Positions 11,166 through 18,704 of a DNA stretch of 60,506 nt are shown here, one piece after another (the stretch's first letter is position 1; each line of letters begins with the position of its first letter). Position numbers and translations under genes: made by a program. The notes below the pieces were generated by a model. It saw nothing but the letters and a program-made list of their open reading frames with translations. It searched no databases and was not told where the DNA came from. This DNA comes from a virus (taxonomy: Duplodnaviria; Caudoviricetes), in the IMG/VR virus record IMGVR_UViG_3300036800_000125, positions 1 to 60,506 of that record; one strand, 5' to 3'.

Positions 11166-11193
11166 TTTACCTCCTACGGTTGGCGTTACCTCA

Positions 11194-11223
11194 ATTATAG
11201 CGTAACTGGACCAGTAGCGCTAC
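11194..11223 (-). promoter_or_regulatory. phage promoter
   Basis: GTAGCG-N18-TATAAT. Confidence 0.75.
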
Positions 11224-11264
11224 CCCCTCGGCCCCTAGCTTTTTACAGCTAGTGCGGGGGTAAG

Positions 11265-11888: not shown

Positions 11889-12677
11889 CTACTCGCCGGT
11901 GTCGGTCGTGTCGGCTTCGGTGGTCTCGGCGGCGGCTTCGGTGGCCGGTGCTTCCTCCGCGCTGTTGGCGGCGTCGTTCTCCTCGCGCCAGTCGCTGCGG
12001 TCCGGGCGGGGGAGCACGGCGAGGAAGCGCTTGCGGTCGGTGGGCATCCCGTGCAGCCACTGGGCGACGCACTGGCGGATCTCGTCGTCACCCTTGTACC
12101 CGGCGTGGATGAGCACGGCGGCGGCGCTGTCGGGGTCCGCGAGGTTGGCGTCGAGGATGTCCTGGACGACTCGTCCAGCAGCTTCAGCCACGAGCGTGGC
12201 GAGCTCGGTCTTGGCCGCCTTGCGGGCGCTGGCCGCGGTGGCGCTGGCGGTGCCTGTGGCTGCTCCCTTGGCGATTGCTGGCAGTCCTGCCAGACAAGTG
12301 TGGAACTGGACGCTCTGGGTGTAGTTATGCTTGTTTAGCCAGGACATGGGGGCCTCCGCCTCGTCGGCGGCGGTCTTGCCCTTGGGGGTGTCGTCCTGGT
12401 ATGTCTCGTGGATCTGGTCGGACCAGACCTCCATGATGACCTCGCGCTGGTTGCGGACGCCCTCGATGGTGTAGTCATCGAGGCCAGCGTAGCTGGAGCG
12501 CTTCTTTGCGGCCGCGTACTGCTTGCAGCCTTGCAGGTGGATGACCCAGTCGTAGTCGCCCTTGCCCATGAGCAGGGCGTTGACGGTGACTGGCGTCTTG
12601 AGGGTCGCTGCCTTGGCCTGTGGTGCCGGGGCGGCAACCGCAACGGCGGGTCTTGCCTGTCCTGCCTTGGTAGTCAT
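11889..12677 (-). CDS. Ala-rich hypothetical protein with acidic tail
   Basis: 262 aa, AAGGAA RBS, own promoter. Confidence 0.8.
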   Translation of the reverse strand: MTTKAGQARPAVAVAAPAPQAKAATLKTPVTVNALLMGKGDYDWVIHLQGCKQYAAAKKRSSYAGLDDYTIEGVRNQREVIMEVWSDQIHETYQDDTPKGKTAADEAEAPMSWLNKHNYTQSVQFHTCLAGLPAIAKGAATGTASATAASARKAAKTELATLVAEAAGRVVQDILDANLADPDSAAAVLIHAGYKGDDEIRQCVAQWLHGMPTDRKRFLAVLPRPDRSDWREENDAANSAEEAPATEAAAETTEADTTDTGE

Positions 12678-13612: not shown

Positions 13613-14055
13613 TATGACTCGCCCGGGATTCCTGGTGTCGACTTCTAACGTCGGCTTTACCTATTAGGGACGAAACCGGGCGTGCAAACTACGCTCAGTA
13701 ACCGGAATCTCCAGCGAATTACATCGCCACAGGTACCTAAACGGTCGATCAGATCTACCCCCCCTGTCTCCGAGCTTCGAAGCGTTACTGGCGACTACGA
13801 TTGCTTTGTCACTGCAACTACGTAGCGTAACCATTTCCTGCAGGAAATTGGCAACAGGAAAATTAAAACGTTTTAATTCCGAAATTCTAAACTACTCCAA
13901 ATTCCCACCGTTTACTGCCTTTTCACCATAAGTTACTGGTGAGTACGGTTTCCATATGGAACGGTACTCAGTACCCTTCCATATGGCGTTCGAATGGCCG
14001 TAGCGTGGAGTAAATCGGCCCTAGTGATACCACTATTCGGCCGTATCCAGCCACT

Positions 14056-14090
14056 AAAAACGACCCCACCCCGAAGGGCAGGGCCGTCTT
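14056..14090 (-). terminator. Rho-independent terminator of the early cassette
   Basis: 13 bp stem with G-U pairs, UUCG loop, U-tail (GACGGCCCTGCCC-TTCG-GGGTGGGGTCGTT-TTT). Confidence 0.85.
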
Positions 14091-14136
14091 TCTGGCGTTC
14101 TCCTACGCTTTTCCGCCGCCGCTCGTGTAGTTTTGC

Positions 14137-14256
14137 CTAGAACTCCTCTCTGGACGTGCGAATCTGGAGGACGAGGCACCAGTAGGCGAGGGATGCGTTG
14201 AACAGCATCTTGGCTGCACGCGTGTAGTAATACAGCGTGGCTTCGTAGATGGTCAT
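14137..14256 (-). CDS. 39 aa hydrophobic peptide
   Basis: translated by hand, MTIYEATLYY...; GGAGG RBS. Confidence 0.55.
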   Translation of the reverse strand: MTIYEATLYYYTRAAKMLFNASLAYWCLVLQIRTSREEF

Positions 14257-14288
14257 TGAGCCTCCATGAGGCTAGGTGTGGATTCGTG

Positions 14289-14355
14289 GGGCTAGGTTGC
14301 CCGGCCAGCCCTGGAACGATACTGAGTACCGTTCCAGGACCAGCCTAGCGGACTA
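14289..14355 (-). repeat. two-hairpin intergenic element, copy A
   Basis: TAG-NN-CGCTA-[hairpin]-GGGCAACCTAGCCC on the minus strand. Confidence 0.8.
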
Positions 14356-14529
14356 TCCTTCGTTGGTGACGACGATCAGGATGGAATTGCCGTATCGAGA
14401 CCAGGTTCCTGCATAGCTCAGGCCTCGACTTTTTTCGCAGTCGGCAGTCCAGGTACCATTTTCGTCTGGGAACACTCGGGCGGTGGGGTCCTTGACCTCG
14501 TCCTGAACAGCCTTGATGATGTCTTCCAT
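14353..14529 (-). CDS. 58 aa hypothetical protein
   Basis: translated by hand, MEDIIKAVQD...; abuts the upstream stop. Confidence 0.6.
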   Translation of the reverse strand: MEDIIKAVQDEVKDPTARVFPDENGTWTADCEKSRGLSYAGTWSRYGNSILIVVTNEG

Positions 14530-14530
14530 C

Positions 14531-14881
14531 TCAGGCCATGTGGATGGTGATCGGGCTCATGTCCTCGGCGCAGTCCTCGGTGCGGATGGCGGCCGCCAGG
14601 GTCTCGAGCGCCAGAGCGACGTCTTCGCGGTCCAGGCCATCGCCTAGTGCGGTCCGCGCCGCCAGTTCCGAGTAGCGCTGGAGCATCAGGAAGGCCTCGC
14701 TGGCCGTTACGGAGGTCGGGCCCTCCATCCGGCCGCCGTGCGTTTCGTACTGGAACGCGCTGTCCTGGTGGGCGTTGTAGGCGTCGGCCGCATTGGTGTT
14801 GTCGTACGGGCCAAGACCGAGCTCCTGGTTCATGCGCTCGCCATCGGCCTCGTAGTCGGATTGGTCAAGGTCTTTGGGCAT
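14531..14881 (-). CDS. acidic hypothetical protein
   Basis: 116 aa, AAGGAG RBS. Confidence 0.75.
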   Translation of the reverse strand: MPKDLDQSDYEADGERMNQELGLGPYDNTNAADAYNAHQDSAFQYETHGGRMEGPTSVTASEAFLMLQRYSELAARTALGDGLDREDVALALETLAAAIRTEDCAEDMSPITIHMA

Positions 14882-14883
14882 CG

Positions 14884-15216
14884 CTACTCCTTGAAGGGTA
14901 CGGACTGGTATGTGACGCCGACGTCTGGGAAGTGCTGGGCGTTGGCTATGCCGCCGACGTCGTCGATGAGCGAGCAGACGGCCATCATGTCATCGCCGAG
15001 GTCGACATCCACGCCGTTGAGCAGGATGCGGCCGGTGTCGTTGAACTCGATGGTGATTGCGCTTCTTCCGTGGTCGCCGTCATCCTCGCAATCGATGGAG
15101 GAGACGTGTTCGCACAGGTAGATCGACTTCACAGTGTCGGCGTTGTGGTAGACCAGCGTTACATCCACTGGTTCTTCCAGCACCCAGGCGGGCAGATGGT
15201 TGATCATTTCGGGCAT
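14884..15216 (-). CDS. acidic hypothetical protein
   Basis: 110 aa, GGAGGAG RBS. Confidence 0.75.
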   Translation of the reverse strand: MPEMINHLPAWVLEEPVDVTLVYHNADTVKSIYLCEHVSSIDCEDDGDHGRSAITIEFNDTGRILLNGVDVDLGDDMMAVCSLIDDVGGIANAQHFPDVGVTYQSVPFKE

Positions 15217-15219
15217 GTT

Positions 15220-15381
15220 TTACTCCTCCACTACCAGGGTGGGCTCGCCGTTGTGGTCGGTCACATCGAGCACGGTCTCGCAGTAGGGGACGCGCTCGGC
15301 CTTGGCGATGGCCTCATCGACGTCGGCGGCCTCGATGTCGCTGCCGTAGATGCCGTTGATGGTCATGGTTCGGAATTTCAC
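15220..15381 (-). CDS. 53 aa acidic protein
   Basis: translated by hand, VKFRTMTING...; AAGGGG RBS. Confidence 0.6.
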   Translation of the reverse strand: MKFRTMTINGIYGSDIEAADVDEAIAKAERVPYCETVLDVTDHNGEPTLVVEE

Positions 15382-15412
15382 ATCTCGCCCCTTTCCTTTT
15401 GGTTATAGCTCA

Positions 15413-15442
15413 AGTATAGCGTATACCGGCTGGTAACGCTAG
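15413..15442 (-). promoter_or_regulatory. phage promoter
   Basis: CTAGCG-N18-TATACT, next to a long hairpin (about 15441-15480). Confidence 0.75.
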
Positions 15443-15489
15443 CCCTAGCGTAGAAAATTTGCAACTTTCTACGCTGGGCTACGCGCGGC

Positions 15490-15648
15490 CTAGCTGAAGA
15501 CGAATCCGTAGGCGTCGAAGGTGAGCGTTGCCTGGAACATGGTAAGTTCTTCGTAGGTCCTGCCCCACATGTATATGGACAGGTAATCGATGTTCATCGG
15601 TGCCAGCCCGTCGCGGGCACACCCTGCCTTGTACTCGTCGAGGGTCAT
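15490..15648 (-). CDS. 52 aa hypothetical protein
   Basis: MTLDEYKAGC..., ATGA overlap. Confidence 0.65.
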   Translation of the reverse strand: MTLDEYKAGCARDGLAPMNIDYLSIYMWGRTYEELTMFQATLTFDAYGFVFS

Positions 15649-15932
15649 TCTTCCTCCCAGTCGTAGATGCCGAGTGAGGCGATGTGGTCGGTGAGGTACT
15701 GCGGGGCAAGTTGCACCCCGAGTGGTCGCCACTGGAAGGTGAACTTGAGGTGGGCGCAGTTCCGGTGGGCCTTGAGGGTGCGCAGGCCGACGCGGGCGGA
15801 GGGCAGGTCGTAGATCGGACGGCCGCCGTACTCCGTGCCGAAGTACACGACCGGCGTGTGGTTGGATTGCGTGAGCCAGCAGACCCCGGGATTGCGGATC
15901 GCACGCTGGCTGCGTGGCTTGCGGTAGATCAT
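15645..15932 (-). CDS. hypothetical protein
   Basis: 95 aa, ATGA overlaps at both ends. Confidence 0.7.
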   Translation of the reverse strand: MIYRKPRSQRAIRNPGVCWLTQSNHTPVVYFGTEYGGRPIYDLPSARVGLRTLKAHRNCAHLKFTFQWRPLGVQLAPQYLTDHIASLGIYDWEEE

Positions 15933-16177
15933 GGTTGCTCGTCCTCCGGTGGGGTCATGAGCCGGTCAGGCGTGTGCTCGTACACCTCGTCGTCTACCAT
16001 GTTGTAGTAGCCGGTAGCACCTCGGTACCACCAGAGCACGACGGAGCTGTCCTCTGGGTGCTCGTCGATTGTGAGGTCTTCTGGTGTGAAGTCGCGCTGC
16101 CCCGGGCGTCGGAGGTCTTCCTCCAGCGCGTTGGAGATCGCCATCCATGCCTTGAAGCTGCTGGCGTTCGCTTCCAT
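15929..16177 (-). CDS. small protein, LWWYRGxTG family (paralog of 9575-9763)
   Basis: GAGGAG RBS; shared motif. Confidence 0.75.
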   Translation of the reverse strand: MEANASSFKAWMAISNALEEDLRRPGQRDFTPEDLTIDEHPEDSSVVLWWYRGATGYYNMVDDEVYEHTPDRLMTPPEDEQP

Positions 16178-16193
16178 GGTACTCCTCCTCTTT

Positions 16194-16249
16194 GGGCTAG
16201 GCAGCCCGGCCGGAGCTCCGTGGCAGCGGAGCGCCAGCCTAGTGGCCTA
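16194..16249 (-). repeat. two-hairpin intergenic element, copy B
   Basis: TAG-NN-CACTA-[hairpin]-GGGCTGCCTAGCCC. Confidence 0.8.
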
Positions 16250-16507
16250 GCGGATGAGGCTGGTGGCGGGGCACCAGTAGGTGCCATCCTTCTTGGCCTT
16301 GACGGTGCAGAAGATGGATCCGTCGAAACTGCCGTACATGATCCACTTGCCGACACCGAACTGCGGTTCTTCGTAGATGTTGTTGTCGTCGTCCTTGATG
16401 TAGTACTCTGCGTTGGCCGGGTCGGCGTAGGCCGGGTCAACCGTGGCCCACCGGCGACGGAAGTGGTCAGCGGCGGCCGCACGGGCGGTGGGGAAGTTCG
16501 TTTCCAT
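16247..16507 (-). CDS. hypothetical protein
   Basis: 86 aa; ATG 6 nt below a -10 box. Confidence 0.75.
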   Translation of the reverse strand: METNFPTARAAAADHFRRRWATVDPAYADPANAEYYIKDDDNNIYEEPQFGVGKWIMYGSFDGSIFCTVKAKKDGTYWCPATSLIR

Positions 16508-16513
16508 AGCCTT

Positions 16514-16544
16514 ATTCTACCTCCATGCTGACTAGTAAGGCTAG
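16514..16544 (-). promoter_or_regulatory. phage promoter, probably leaderless
   Basis: CTAGCC-N19-TAGAAT-AAGGCT-ATG; near-duplicate of 17341-17386. Confidence 0.7.
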
Positions 16545-16593
16545 CCCCTAGCCGGAAAATTTTCTGCAATTCTCCGGCTACGGGCGAACCCGG

Positions 16594-16662
16594 CTAGCGA
16601 CGAGGTGTTGCGAAGAATGCGGTGAACAGGATGATGACGCCGATCAGGGCAAGGCCGAACAT
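16594..16662 (-). CDS. 22 aa single-TM peptide (MFGLALIGVIILFTAFFATPRR)
   Basis: translated by hand; starts just after the upstream TAG. Confidence 0.45.
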   Translation of the reverse strand: MFGLALIGVIILFTAFFATPRR

Positions 16663-16666
16663 GCGG

Positions 16667-16867
16667 CTAGGCTCCGATGGGCTGGGCGTCTTGCAGGAAG
16701 CGGGCCCAGCCACCGGCGTAGTGGCGGCTGATGCCCCGGATGACTTGCTCGTCGGTCAGGGAGCCGAGGCTGCCCTCACCCCAGGAGCAGTCGGCGATCC
16801 AGTCGCGCGCGGCCTTGATGTCAGCCGGGGTGAGGGTTGACGTTGTTAGCGGGTAGCGCTTGGCCAT
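16667..16867 (-). CDS. hypothetical protein
   Basis: 66 aa, GGAGG RBS. Confidence 0.75.
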   Translation of the reverse strand: MAKRYPLTTSTLTPADIKAARDWIADCSWGEGSLGSLTDEQVIRGISRHYAGGWARFLQDAQPIGA

Positions 16868-16897
16868 GGTAAGCCTCCGTGAGGCTGGTAGGGAGCT

Positions 16898-16947
16898 GGG
16901 CTAGGTCGCCCGGGCAGTGCCCCGTAGGGCACCACCCTAGCGCGCTA
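16898..16947 (-). repeat. two-hairpin intergenic element, copy C
   Basis: TAG-CG-CGCTA-[hairpin]-GGGCGACCTAGCCC. Confidence 0.85.
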
Positions 16948-17343
16948 GAGCTCCTGGCGGGGCACATCCCGCCCGCAGTGGTAGCAGTGCTCACTTGCGT
17001 TATCCGGGTTAGCGAACACCCCGGGATGGATACAGTCGCGCGTCACGGATTCGCCGTAGTTCAGGTTCAGGGTTGCGGCCTCGTCAGCCGCCCCCAGCAC
17101 GACGGGCAGGTCATCGCCGAAGTCACGGATCAGATCAGAGCAGCCGCCCCACTCAGCCCAGACCACGGCGAGCGGGCGGAGGTCGTCAAAGACGAGCAGG
17201 ACGGCCGGGAACAGGCCGACCGTACCGGCGGGCTGGTAGGTAAAGCCGCCGGGGGAGATGGTACCGCGCGTTATCGTCACGGGCGAGCCGTCACGGAACC
17301 AAAGCGGCAGTTCAGCCGGGGGAACCGGCAGGTTTTCATTCAT
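16945..17343 (-). CDS. hypothetical protein, C-terminal Cys/His cluster
   Basis: 132 aa; CIHP...HCYHCG. Confidence 0.75.
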   Translation of the reverse strand: MNENLPVPPAELPLWFRDGSPVTITRGTISPGGFTYQPAGTVGLFPAVLLVFDDLRPLAVVWAEWGGCSDLIRDFGDDLPVVLGAADEAATLNLNYGESVTRDCIHPGVFANPDNASEHCYHCGRDVPRQEL

Positions 17344-17349
17344 AGCCTT

Positions 17350-17379
17350 ATCGTACCTCCTATTGGCTAGTAAGGCTAC
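17350..17379 (-). promoter_or_regulatory. phage promoter, probably leaderless
   Basis: GTAGCC-N18-TACGAT-AAGGCT-ATG. Confidence 0.7.
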
Positions 17380-17424
17380 CCCCTAGACTGGTAACGTTGC
17401 GTTACCAGCCCGAGGGAAGCACGG

Positions 17425-17733
17425 CTAGCGCCAGTCAGAGCGGTCAGGAACGGGCAGGTCAGCGGTAGGCCAGCCGAGCGCGGGGGAGGACAGGTGGTGA
17501 AGCTGGTTCGAGATGAGCTTGGCGACTTCGGCCTGAAGCTCAGCGGGCACCAGTTCGGTGACCAGGGTACCGGCGGCCAGGATGATCGCCAGGTCGACGT
17601 CACGCCGCCAGTCGGTCGCCGTACGCGGCTTGACCGTTACGGTCCGCGCGGGGTGAGCCTTGGCGAAGGCCTGCGGGTCCCGCTGCGCCAGTTCGAAGGC
17701 GGACCGGAGCGCGAGGAGCGATGAAGTTGTCAT
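17425..17733 (-). CDS. hypothetical protein
   Basis: 102 aa, GAAAGG RBS. Confidence 0.7.
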   Translation of the reverse strand: MTTSSLLALRSAFELAQRDPQAFAKAHPARTVTVKPRTATDWRRDVDLAIILAAGTLVTELVPAELQAEVAKLISNQLHHLSSPALGWPTADLPVPDRSDWR

Positions 17734-17754
17734 GGTAGTGCCTTTCTCGGTTTT

Positions 17755-17807
17755 GGGCTAGGTCGCCCGGGCGGTACCCCCGGAGGGGGTATCACCCTAG
17801 CGCGCTA
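17755..17807 (-). repeat. two-hairpin intergenic element, copy D
   Basis: near-identical to copy C outside the hairpin tip. Confidence 0.85.
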
Positions 17808-18095
17808 GGCAAAGTCACCGAGGCACCCGGAGCAGGTACCGTTAGCCGACCGCGTTACGAAGTGACGGTCACAGATATTAGACTGGCCCTTACGCGGGCC
17901 CCGTAGGACTACGGGGCGGTAGCCGCCGCTTAGCGCGCGGTCAGCTAGCGCGTCAAGTACGTAGGCCGGGGGCATCGCGCTACCGGGATCGCACTCACAT
18001 TTTTCGTAGTTCATTAGCTGGGTAGGCGTATAGGGCCTACGGTTAGCGGCTAGTAGCTTCAGTTTTTGGGGACTAGGCCCCTTACGCCCGCTCAC
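17805..18095 (-). CDS. first gene of the early cassette; C-terminal Zn-finger-like (CDRHF...GTCSGC)
   Basis: 96 aa; AGGGG RBS; unusual CTA/GTA codon use. Confidence 0.65.
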   Translation of the reverse strand: MSGRKGPSPQKLKLLAANRRPYTPTQLMNYEKCECDPGSAMPPAYVLDALADRALSGGYRPVVLRGPRKGQSNICDRHFVTRSANGTCSGCLGDFA

Positions 18096-18196
18096 TTTTT
18101 ACCCCTACCCCTTACGTACGCGGGCCCTAGCGGGCCCTACCCGCGCGGTACGCGGGCCCGGGGGCCCCGCCCGCTACCTTTTTAGCTATTACCTAA

Positions 18197-18226
18197 AGGT
18201 TACCCCCTACCTAGGCAAAAAGCTAC
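18197..18226 (-). promoter_or_regulatory. phage promoter heading the early cassette
   Basis: GTAGCT-N18-TAACCT. Confidence 0.6.
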
Positions 18227-18391
18227 CTTTTGCGGTAACGAAATGGTAACGTTAGCTAGTACCTTAGGACCTACCCCCTACCGGGCCCTACCCCGAAATT
18301 GCCCCTACCCGGCCTGGAGCGGGCCCCTAAGTGGACTTCTACCTACCCCCGTCCTACCCGCCCGGTCGGCGTCCCGGGCCCGTAAAATGCC

Positions 18392-18518
18392 ATCGTTCGG
18401 TCCTTCGTACGACCTAACGACTGGAATTCGTACGGTCGTACGTATGACCTGGACCGGTCGTACGGTCGTTCGTATCATTCGAGTTAGAACCGCCGGTCGT
18501 TCGGTCGTTCGTACGTTC
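18392..18518. repeat. cluster of GGTCGT(A/T)CG / TCGTACG short repeats
   Basis: multiple imperfect tandem copies visible. Confidence 0.75.
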
Positions 18519-18579
18519 AGTCCCGCAAGTTGGCGAAAAATCTGAACAGTCATGGTTATACCCTGGAATAGTTCGAAAA

Positions 18580-18623
18580 TCCCAAAAAGTGCAAAACGAT
18601 CGCAATTTCCCAAAAAGTGCAAA
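18580..18623. repeat. 16 bp direct repeat TCCCAAAAAGTGCAAA x2
   Basis: 18580-18595 and 18608-18623, within a run of A-tracts. Confidence 0.85.
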
Positions 18624-18704
18624 CACAATTTCCAAATTGTACTTCATGCAACCGGTTGACCAGCGGATTAGGCGAAACCCCCGTTAGGGGGTAACCTACT
18701 ATCT

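Follow-up and report, generated by a model that had tools for sequence, protein, structure and literature searches.

Four copies of a structured RNA element of about 55 bases lie on the minus strand of the 60,506-nucleotide (nt) stretch of phage DNA analysed here (the window; IMG/VR virus record IMGVR_UViG_3300036800_000125, a 60.5-kb Caudoviricetes record estimated to be 64% complete), and each begins on the stop codon of the gene upstream. All follow a common plan, (C)TAG-N4-CTAG-variable hairpin-(C)GGGC-NN-CCTAG-CCC, in which the first TAG (UAG in the RNA) is that stop codon, and which can fold into an interrupted hairpin of 19 to 27 base pairs (bp). The structure, strand, conservation and position of the element, and its exchange with other modules between related phages, are observed directly in the sequences compared. 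The element may be an undescribed intercistronic hairpin that processes or stabilises the early mRNA of actinobacterial phages, a tentative reading to which we assign a probability of about 0.45.

The 3' box of the element, GGGCNNCCTAGCCC, has four exact matches in the window, all on the minus strand between positions 14289 and 17768, compared with a mean of 0.01 in 100 dinucleotide shuffles, none of which reached four. Matches with up to two mismatches are at chance level (12 versus 9.05 expected), and only exact copies were therefore counted. The whole virus record contains no further copy of the element, and a covariance model (R1), built from the four window copies and 15 other copies, finds none in the window at E ≤ 1. 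An initial annotation of the window had described four minus-strand copies at a fixed distance from a stop codon, and all four were recovered: in each, a TAG located 5 nt on the 5' side of CTAGG is the stop codon of the upstream open reading frame (ORF), and the 3' box lies 16 to 32 nt from the next start codon. The copies are listed below with ORF lengths in amino acids (aa), minimum free energy (MFE), z-score and R1 score.

Copy D, 17755..17808, minus strand: CTAG, CGCG, CTAG, an 11-bp variable stem with a UCC loop, CGGGC, GA, CCTAG and CCC; 3' box at 17755-17768; stop TAG at 17805-17807 ends a 96-aa ORF (17805-18095), and the ATG of a 102-aa ORF (17733) follows 21 nt on; MFE -34.4, z -3.36; 54.4 bits, E 1.3e-14.
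Copy C, 16898..16948, minus strand: 3' box at 16898-16911; stop TAG at 16945-16947 ends a 132-aa ORF; a C(UACG)G tetraloop caps the variable stem; ATG at 16867, after a small hairpin (16872-16886) that encloses the Shine-Dalgarno sequence; MFE -44.7, z -3.95; 53.4 bits.
Copy B, 16194..16250, minus strand: 3' box at 16194-16207; stop TAG at 16247-16249 ends an 86-aa ORF; lower stem CUAGGC/GCCUAG; ATG at 16177 after 16 nt; MFE -44.2, z -3.86; 62.4 bits.
Copy A, 14289..14356, minus strand: 3' box at 14289-14302; stop TAG at 14353-14355 ends a 58-aa ORF; ATAG instead of CTAG; a perfect variable stem of 20 bp; MFE -44.1, z -5.47; 50.3 bits.

The small hairpin downstream of copy C has a counterpart downstream of copy A: at 14259-14273 and 16872-16886 (minus strand), perfect hairpins of the form AGCCUC-AUG/ACG-GAGGCU enclose the Shine-Dalgarno GGAGG of the genes 3' of copies A and C.

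The initial annotation had proposed a structure valid on the transcribed strand only, and folding bears this out: the z-scores of copies A to D are -5.5, -3.9, -4.0 and -3.4 on the minus strand, compared with -1.9, -2.7, -1.4 and -2.6 on the plus strand. At minimum energy, copies B, C and D each fold into one long hairpin with interruptions: the CUAG of the stop codon pairs with the 3' CUAG to form a lower stem, and a middle stem (CGCU/GGCG or CU/GG) separates this from the variable stem. Copy A, whose upper stem has 20 bp, is the only one with an MFE fold that consists of the variable hairpin (H1) followed by a small GGGC/GCCC hairpin. The 3' box thus serves either as the 3' strand of the lower stem or as the small hairpin GGGC-loop-GCCC, and since both folds use the same 3' strand they are mutually exclusive. 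The small 3' hairpin is absent in one subtype of the family (5 distinct copies) and has lost its inner pair in another, which indicates that the long hairpin is the universal form; the small hairpin is a possible alternative state. The element had at first been drawn with two hairpins, a drawing that survives as one of two exclusive folds, the one of lowest energy in copy A, but not for copies B, C and D, which fold as one long hairpin. The pairing of CUAGG with CCUAG, previously mentioned as an alternative, is present and is the better-supported lower stem, and the reported covariation at the base of the stem is real (C-G in copies A and B, G-C in copies C and D; alignment A1). A simultaneous pseudoknot between the loop of the small hairpin and the 5' UAGG was judged, by inference and not by computation, to be sterically implausible.

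The description as a four-copy element holds for the window but understates the family, members of which occur in no fewer than 26 further contigs. When viral contigs were scanned for exact matches to a pattern of just CTAGG, a gap and the 3' box, 30 loci were found, of which 15 had the whole plan by inspection; these 15 share the second CTAG at the N4 spacing and the long hairpin, features that lay outside the search pattern. A second pattern added six viral loci. The same pattern gave five matches in 185,579 prokaryote genomes (one per species), none with the architecture of the element and none above 24.4 bits with R1. A metagenome scan added five contigs (L050 to L054) that are true relatives of the window phage, with 65-83% nucleotide identity. 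With these sequences, the covariance-model scan of phages and metagenomes that the initial annotation had suggested yields, at E < 1e-5, 54 copies (43 distinct) in the window, 21 viral loci and five metagenome loci, and many of the 54 were picked by no search pattern. Near-complete phage genomes have one to three copies each, clustered near one end, and there are one to four per phage overall.

The phages of lower G+C content (0.44-0.54) that carry the element encode WhiB-like proteins, which indicates that they are actinobacterial phages. No WhiB was found in the window, and the portal protein of the window phage is closest to that of Streptomyces phage Dagobah (39.7% identity). No ORF is common to the window and the lower-G+C phages at E ≤ 1e-5. 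Among GenBank phages, neither BLAST of the region nor BLAST of a 61-nt copy at E ≤ 10 gave a relevant match; R1 has no match in phiC31 (best 12.6 bits), a phage considered because its early terminators lack a U-tract, and scores at best 14.2 bits in Dagobah; GenBank record OX376640.1 contains no copy. A 262-aa protein of the window found no relatives when used as a query, and for the 132-aa protein that precedes copy C only the last 30 residues were matched, in two contigs without the element (L048 and L049).

Several lines of evidence point to selection on the RNA. Among the 43 distinct copies, 94.9% of the cells in paired columns can pair, compared with 72.9% in shuffles and at most 48.8% in slid-partner controls, and 17 of the 23 pairs have changes on both sides; no shuffle out of 500 reached the observed values. 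This alignment was fitted to the model and so favours the model's structure, but an independent MAFFT alignment of 19 copies gave 94.2% paired cells and double changes in 13 of 23 pairs. Covariation is found within the lower stem (UA:24/CG:8/GC:5 at one pair, GC:28/UA:3 at another) and to some extent at the outer pair of the small 3' hairpin (GC:26/UA:6/GU:5), and orthologous copies in related phages differ by compensatory changes. A U.G wobble four pairs into the variable stem is present in 43 of 43 distinct copies, where it was no requirement of the search patterns and where neighbouring pairs covary freely; in the middle stem, a second U.G and an adjacent A.G mismatch are nearly invariant. 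Across the family, G.U cells outnumber A.C cells by 178 to 10, which indicates a constraint on a single strand of sense polarity and not on duplex DNA. Both the covariation in homologues that the initial annotation had asked for and its strand-specific G-U pairs are present. The terminal loops are tetraloops in 36 of 43 copies, with 11 UNCG and five GNRA loops, classes to which only about 5% of random tetraloops would belong, and this excess of RNA-specific stable loops points to RNA instead of single-stranded DNA. The helix has a median length of 23 bp in the 43 distinct copies, or about two turns.

The context of the element is equally regular. Its first TAG ends an ORF of at least 45 aa outright in 25 of 38 distinct contexts, and in six more it ends an ORF of 49-112 aa, while a longer, spurious frame continues through the element; in five copies the stop codon is 5 nt earlier. 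All 54 copies are in sense orientation, with a ribosome-binding site (RBS) and start codon 16-50 nt downstream, and the flanking genes are diverse small ORFs. No promoter-like site was found at the four junctions in the window, which had been described from the outset as lacking a promoter.

Some related phages carry hammerhead-like sequences in corresponding places. All matches to the Rfam hammerhead model score below its gathering score of 37:

L012:5569-5628, minus strand: hammerhead type II-like, 32.2 bits.
L032:1256-1321, minus strand: hammerhead type II-like with a degenerate CUGAUGA box, 35.9 bits.
L011:672-729, plus strand: hammerhead type II-like, 28.8 bits.
L031:2644-2701, plus strand: hammerhead type II-like, 30.4 bits.
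L023: hammerhead type II-like, seen by eye only.

The core sequences CGAAAC, GUC and CUGAUGA are visible in them (apart from the degenerate box in L032), and the stems covary between L011, L023 and L031. They lie on the sense strand of early operons in freshwater-type low-G+C actinophage contigs, start 0-2 nt from the upstream stop codon (on CTAG in three) and are followed by an A-rich spacer and an RBS of the same kind as those of the element. The gene that follows a hammerhead in L011 has a homologue in L022 that follows the element. Downstream of one small gene for a membrane protein, which is homologous among the contigs, the hammerhead of L011, L023 and L031 is replaced in L029 (~12400-12486, minus strand) and L015 (~1040-1115) by a CTAG-bracketed hairpin with its own small 3' hairpin, CCTAG-TAGAGAG-stem-TCCGC-AACTAG-GCGGG. 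From this arrangement of sequences, the element occupies the slot in which related phages carry putative hammerhead type II-like ribozymes. It has been proposed that phage hammerheads that occur in clusters divide long transcripts into mRNAs of gene length (PMC3088659), and nearness to known ribozymes was a route to the recognition of twister, pistol and hatchet (PMC6765202).

Comparison of related phages, which the initial annotation had proposed as a means of finding gene swaps, reveals them at these boundaries. Wherever related phages have kept both flanks, they also have the element at the orthologous site, with the same length; the stem of the copy A orthologue in L050 is nearly identical. 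Flank comparisons among relatives revealed no precise empty site, and in the single case that looked like one, the whole cassette upstream had been replaced. Indels and gene swaps between relatives end exactly at the 5' edge of the element. L050 lacks the 58-aa gene of the window, and its preceding gene ends in the first CTAG of the element; the L053 orthologue of the 132-aa protein lacks the 30-residue C-terminal extension, and this gene too ends in the first CTAG. After the orthologue of the 102-aa gene (g102), L051 and L054 have the element whereas the window, L052 and L053 have a promoter-like module of a second kind (P-type), and the order of cassettes in L052 is different. The suggestion that the element marks boundaries of cassette shuffling is thus supported. 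In the window, the 30-residue extension (16945-17037) reads CIHPGVF...HCYxCGRD and resembles a zinc ribbon; it recurs with 67-70% identity at L048:2064-2153 and L049:6001-6090, at the C-terminus of an otherwise unrelated gene. Judging from these comparisons, the extension represents a small mobile module of protein sequence, here fused directly ahead of the element.

The behaviour of the junctions appears best explained, by analogy with the PeSL sequences of T4-type phages, by recombination in which the conserved stem acts as a homology patch. In our view recombination would be a consequence of the element and not its purpose, because of the low copy number, the strict orientation, the differing interiors of the copies, and the fact that neither a transposase nor an integrase nor an empty site was found.

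As a processing or stabilising hairpin, the element would act in cis within the early polycistronic mRNA, with its lower stem starting on the UAG stop codon of the upstream gene. A ribosome would have to open the lower stem to reach the stop codon, and upon its release the full helix of about 23 bp could form. A host ribonuclease specific for double strands or for structure, of which RNase III is the obvious candidate, may then cut the helix, or else the helix may block exonucleases. In both cases the cistrons on either side would gain their own ends, protected by hairpins, and their own stabilities, as at the early RNase III sites of T7 and as has been proposed for hammerheads in other phages. 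The conserved lower stem would incidentally offer a short homology patch for the exchange of early-gene cassettes. Cleavage, its agent and its effect on expression are inferred. With this reading one can account for the strand on which the element lies, its loops and helix length, its position, the lack of a promoter and of a U-tract, and the presence of hammerheads nearby.

Several observations weigh against a processing or stabilising role. Because RNase III needs no conserved sequence in its substrates, it does not by itself explain why the lower stem and the wobble are invariant; these features argue for a specific reader, be it a protein, the ribosome or the RNA itself, which keeps three other readings alive, namely an attenuator, a switch and a ribozyme. 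Neither a cognate phage protein nor a phage RNase III was found in the window, a record that is 64% complete. The exchange of modules is no proof of equal function, for the lineage of the window swaps the element with promoter-bearing P-type modules after the same gene. The search patterns themselves fixed some of the positions that are conserved in the boxes. All hammerhead hits fall under the gathering score, with that of L023 recognised by eye, and the hairpin variant found in place of the hammerhead in L029 and L015 goes undetected by R1, from which it also follows that the superfamily is wider than the 54 copies counted.

Transcription attenuation is an unlikely function for the element. 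The hairpin, alone or with the help of a factor, would partly terminate transcription behind the promoter-proximal gene, and a ribosome at the embedded stop codon would melt the lower stem and allow read-through, thereby coupling the distal genes to translation of the first gene. The hairpins are GC-rich and stable (-34 to -45 kcal/mol) and lie within operons, often after the first gene behind a P-type module; the stop codon is within the 5' strand, so that translation must open the hairpin; and T4 PeSL stem-loops are described as acting as terminators (PMC2839356). However, a U-tract, which mycobacterial RNA polymerase is described as requiring in vitro (PMC3993855), is lacking, the 3' flank being CCC followed by A-rich sequence, and none of the seven terminator-like sites between 13000 and 19500 is a copy of the element. 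A plain terminator, behaviour as which the initial annotation had named as a refutation, is likewise not what the four window copies resemble, since none has a U-tract although their hairpins are GC-rich. A terminator also needs no invariant sequence in its lower stem, and the downstream genes have no promoter of their own.

It is also unlikely that the element acts primarily as DNA, as a mobile or recombinogenic module (a hairpin repeat that targets CTAG, or a PeSL-like homology patch) whose hairpin would be a by-product or would act in single-stranded DNA. CTAG brackets the element and supplies the stop codons, indels and replacements end at the first (C)TAG (L050, L053, and the alternation of element and P-type module after g102), cassette order is shuffled in L052, and T4 PeSLs are reported to mediate such shuffling (PMC2839356, PMC4122927). 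However, there are only one to four clustered copies per phage, with unrelated interiors, and not many near-identical dispersed ones; all 54 are in sense orientation although CTAG is palindromic; and the excess of RNA-type tetraloops is not expected of DNA hairpins. Relatives have no precise empty site, the five matches in prokaryote genomes lack the architecture, and the window (of a record that is 64% complete) has no match to a Y1 transposase or a tyrosine recombinase (PF00589).

There is a small chance that the element replaces hammerheads as a new RNA that is either catalytic, in the form of a minimal self-cleaving motif, or gated by the ribosome, in the form of a switch set by termination on UAG; early transcripts would then be cut only once the upstream gene had been translated. 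In the catalytic form, the element would be a self-cleaving ribozyme of a new class, or the substrate half of such a ribozyme, and would cut the early mRNA between cistrons as a functional replacement for hammerheads, with which it has a common slot and common operons and is exchanged. This is improbable: the invariant non-Watson-Crick features (U.G in 43 of 43 copies, with the conserved U.G and A.G beside it), the two alternative folds with some covariation in each, and the absence of an Rfam match would suit a ribozyme, but the element is essentially one helix with 1x1 mismatches, it offers no multi-helix junction or pseudoknot in which to build an active site, few of its unpaired nucleotides are conserved, and its two folds cannot coexist.

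Equally doubtful is a termination-gated switch or protein-binding operator, in which a ribosome on the stop codon would select the fold and a host or phage protein would read one form, controlling translation of the next gene or antitermination in the manner of nut or put sites. The mutually exclusive folds with covariation in both, the small hairpin of similar kind in the L015 variant, the invariant sequence where a protein could read it, and the promoter-proximal position with one to four copies per genome are consistent with such a switch. However, as noted above, one subtype (5 distinct copies) has no small hairpin and another has lost its inner pair, the window phage and the lower-G+C phages have no protein in common at E ≤ 1e-5, and the start region of the next gene is outside the element.

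Four further candidates were set aside: a promoter within the 3' box, because TACCTA lacks the final T of TAnnnT and a -35 sequence would fall in the variable stem; an RNase P or tRNA-like substrate, suggested by C-CCA after the helix in three of the four window copies, because a 5' cut would remove the stop codon; a mimic of a CRISPR repeat, because the stem sequences differ between copies; and translational read-through or bypass, because the spacing from first to last TAG is no constant multiple of three and the downstream genes have their own RBS.

The early region of phage T7 contains several RNase III sites (R0.3 to R1.3) that are irregular hairpins of about two turns between early cistrons, in which the lower part is more strongly conserved than the variable upper stem, and that leave protective hairpins on the mRNAs. 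The element is similar in being an irregular helix of 19-27 bp (median 23) between ORFs of an early operon. It differs in that its helix stands on a stop codon, contains U.G wobbles that do not vary and keeps its sequence in phages with no detectable common proteins, and in that its cleavage is a proposal.

The clustered hammerheads of phages and prophages (Perreault et al. 2011, PMC3088659) are similar to the element in their slot between a stop codon and the next RBS and in being exchanged at orthologous junctions, but the element has no hammerhead core and is a single helix, not a three-way junction. As the initial annotation had judged by eye, the element matches no known ribozyme: with Rfam 15 there is no match in the whole window at the gathering score, none on the element (14000-18200) at E ≤ 10, and none at E ≤ 1 for the copies in L010, L012, L037 and L052.

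The PeSL sequences of T4-type phages, as described in Arbiol et al. 2010 (PMC2839356) and Comeau et al. 2014 (PMC4122927), also begin at the upstream stop codon, form stem-loops with G-T pairs and lie between small early ORFans, at the junctions of indels and replacements in related phages. In contrast to PeSLs, the element has no promoter-like part (the P-type modules have one), its conserved part is the base of the stem and not promoter hexamers, and its hosts are actinobacterial. The SAS and ESAS repeats of Cluster K phages (Pope et al. 2011, PMC3203893) resemble it as actinophage repeats of one orientation in a non-structural region with a GGG...CCC box after an inverted repeat. However, SAS is described as lying 3-7 bp from the start codon and containing the Shine-Dalgarno sequence, whereas the element is anchored on the stop codon, and the arms of ESAS are described as conserved in sequence without compensatory change, whereas those of the element covary. 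The SAS 13-mer, GGGATAGGAGCCC, has two matches in the window at up to two mismatches compared with 2.19 expected, neither of them in the region of the element. The likeness to integron attC sites, an ORF followed by a 3' hairpin with conserved ends, is an analogy only: the element ends in CTAG and not in GTTRRRY/RYYYAAC, and there is no PF00589 match in the window.

The literature search, which did not extend to the supplementary alignments of motif-discovery papers, found no description of this hairpin family. The element appears to belong with the hairpins known between cistrons of phage early mRNAs, although there is a minority probability that it is of a categorically new kind. RNA-level control in actinobacterial phages, whether of soil Streptomyces-like hosts or of freshwater low-G+C lineages, is almost unexplored, and here a family that is absent from Rfam is conserved across phages with no detectable common proteins and has unusually sharp features: its helix includes a stop codon, one wobble pair is invariant and two folds compete. 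That it is exchanged with hammerheads suggests one hypothesis for both, the segmenting of early polycistronic mRNA, which if true would bear on the long-standing question of the function of bacterial and phage hammerheads. The element could yield compact insulator or processing parts for actinobacterial synthetic biology, and its junctions show how these phages shuffle early-gene cassettes.

The P-type modules, which are not part of the element, alternate with copies D, C, B and A on the minus strand of the window:

17344-17425, minus strand: P-type module.
16508-16594, minus strand: P-type module.
15382-15490, minus strand: P-type module.
~11170-11230, minus strand: P-type module.

Each starts on the CTAG stop of the upstream gene and contains a hairpin with an A/T-rich centre and the sequence CTAGGGG(C/G)TAGCCTTACTAG, with a -10-like TAnnnT located 17-18 nt after TAGCCT. 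In two of them an ATG follows 6 nt after the hexamer, and the mRNA probably has no leader. TAAGGCT, just 5' of the ATG, is complementary to the -35-like arm AGCCTTA, and the two covary in L052 (AGCCCTA/TAGGGTT). In relatives the -10-like hexamer is retained both before leaderless genes and before genes with a leader, from which it follows that the P-type modules are probably promoters; by analogy, they look like the actinophage counterpart of the PeSL cassettes of T4.

CTAG is dense between 14000 and 18000, a 4-kb segment with 27 of the 138 occurrences in the window, and TAG is the stop codon at every junction with a structured module there. Between the leftward early operon and the rightward genes, a large non-coding region (18100-18700) has many GGTAGGG motifs and, at 18389-18513, four direct repeats of about 21 nt similar to CCGGTCGTACGGTCGTTCGTA; this region is possibly an operator array or an origin.

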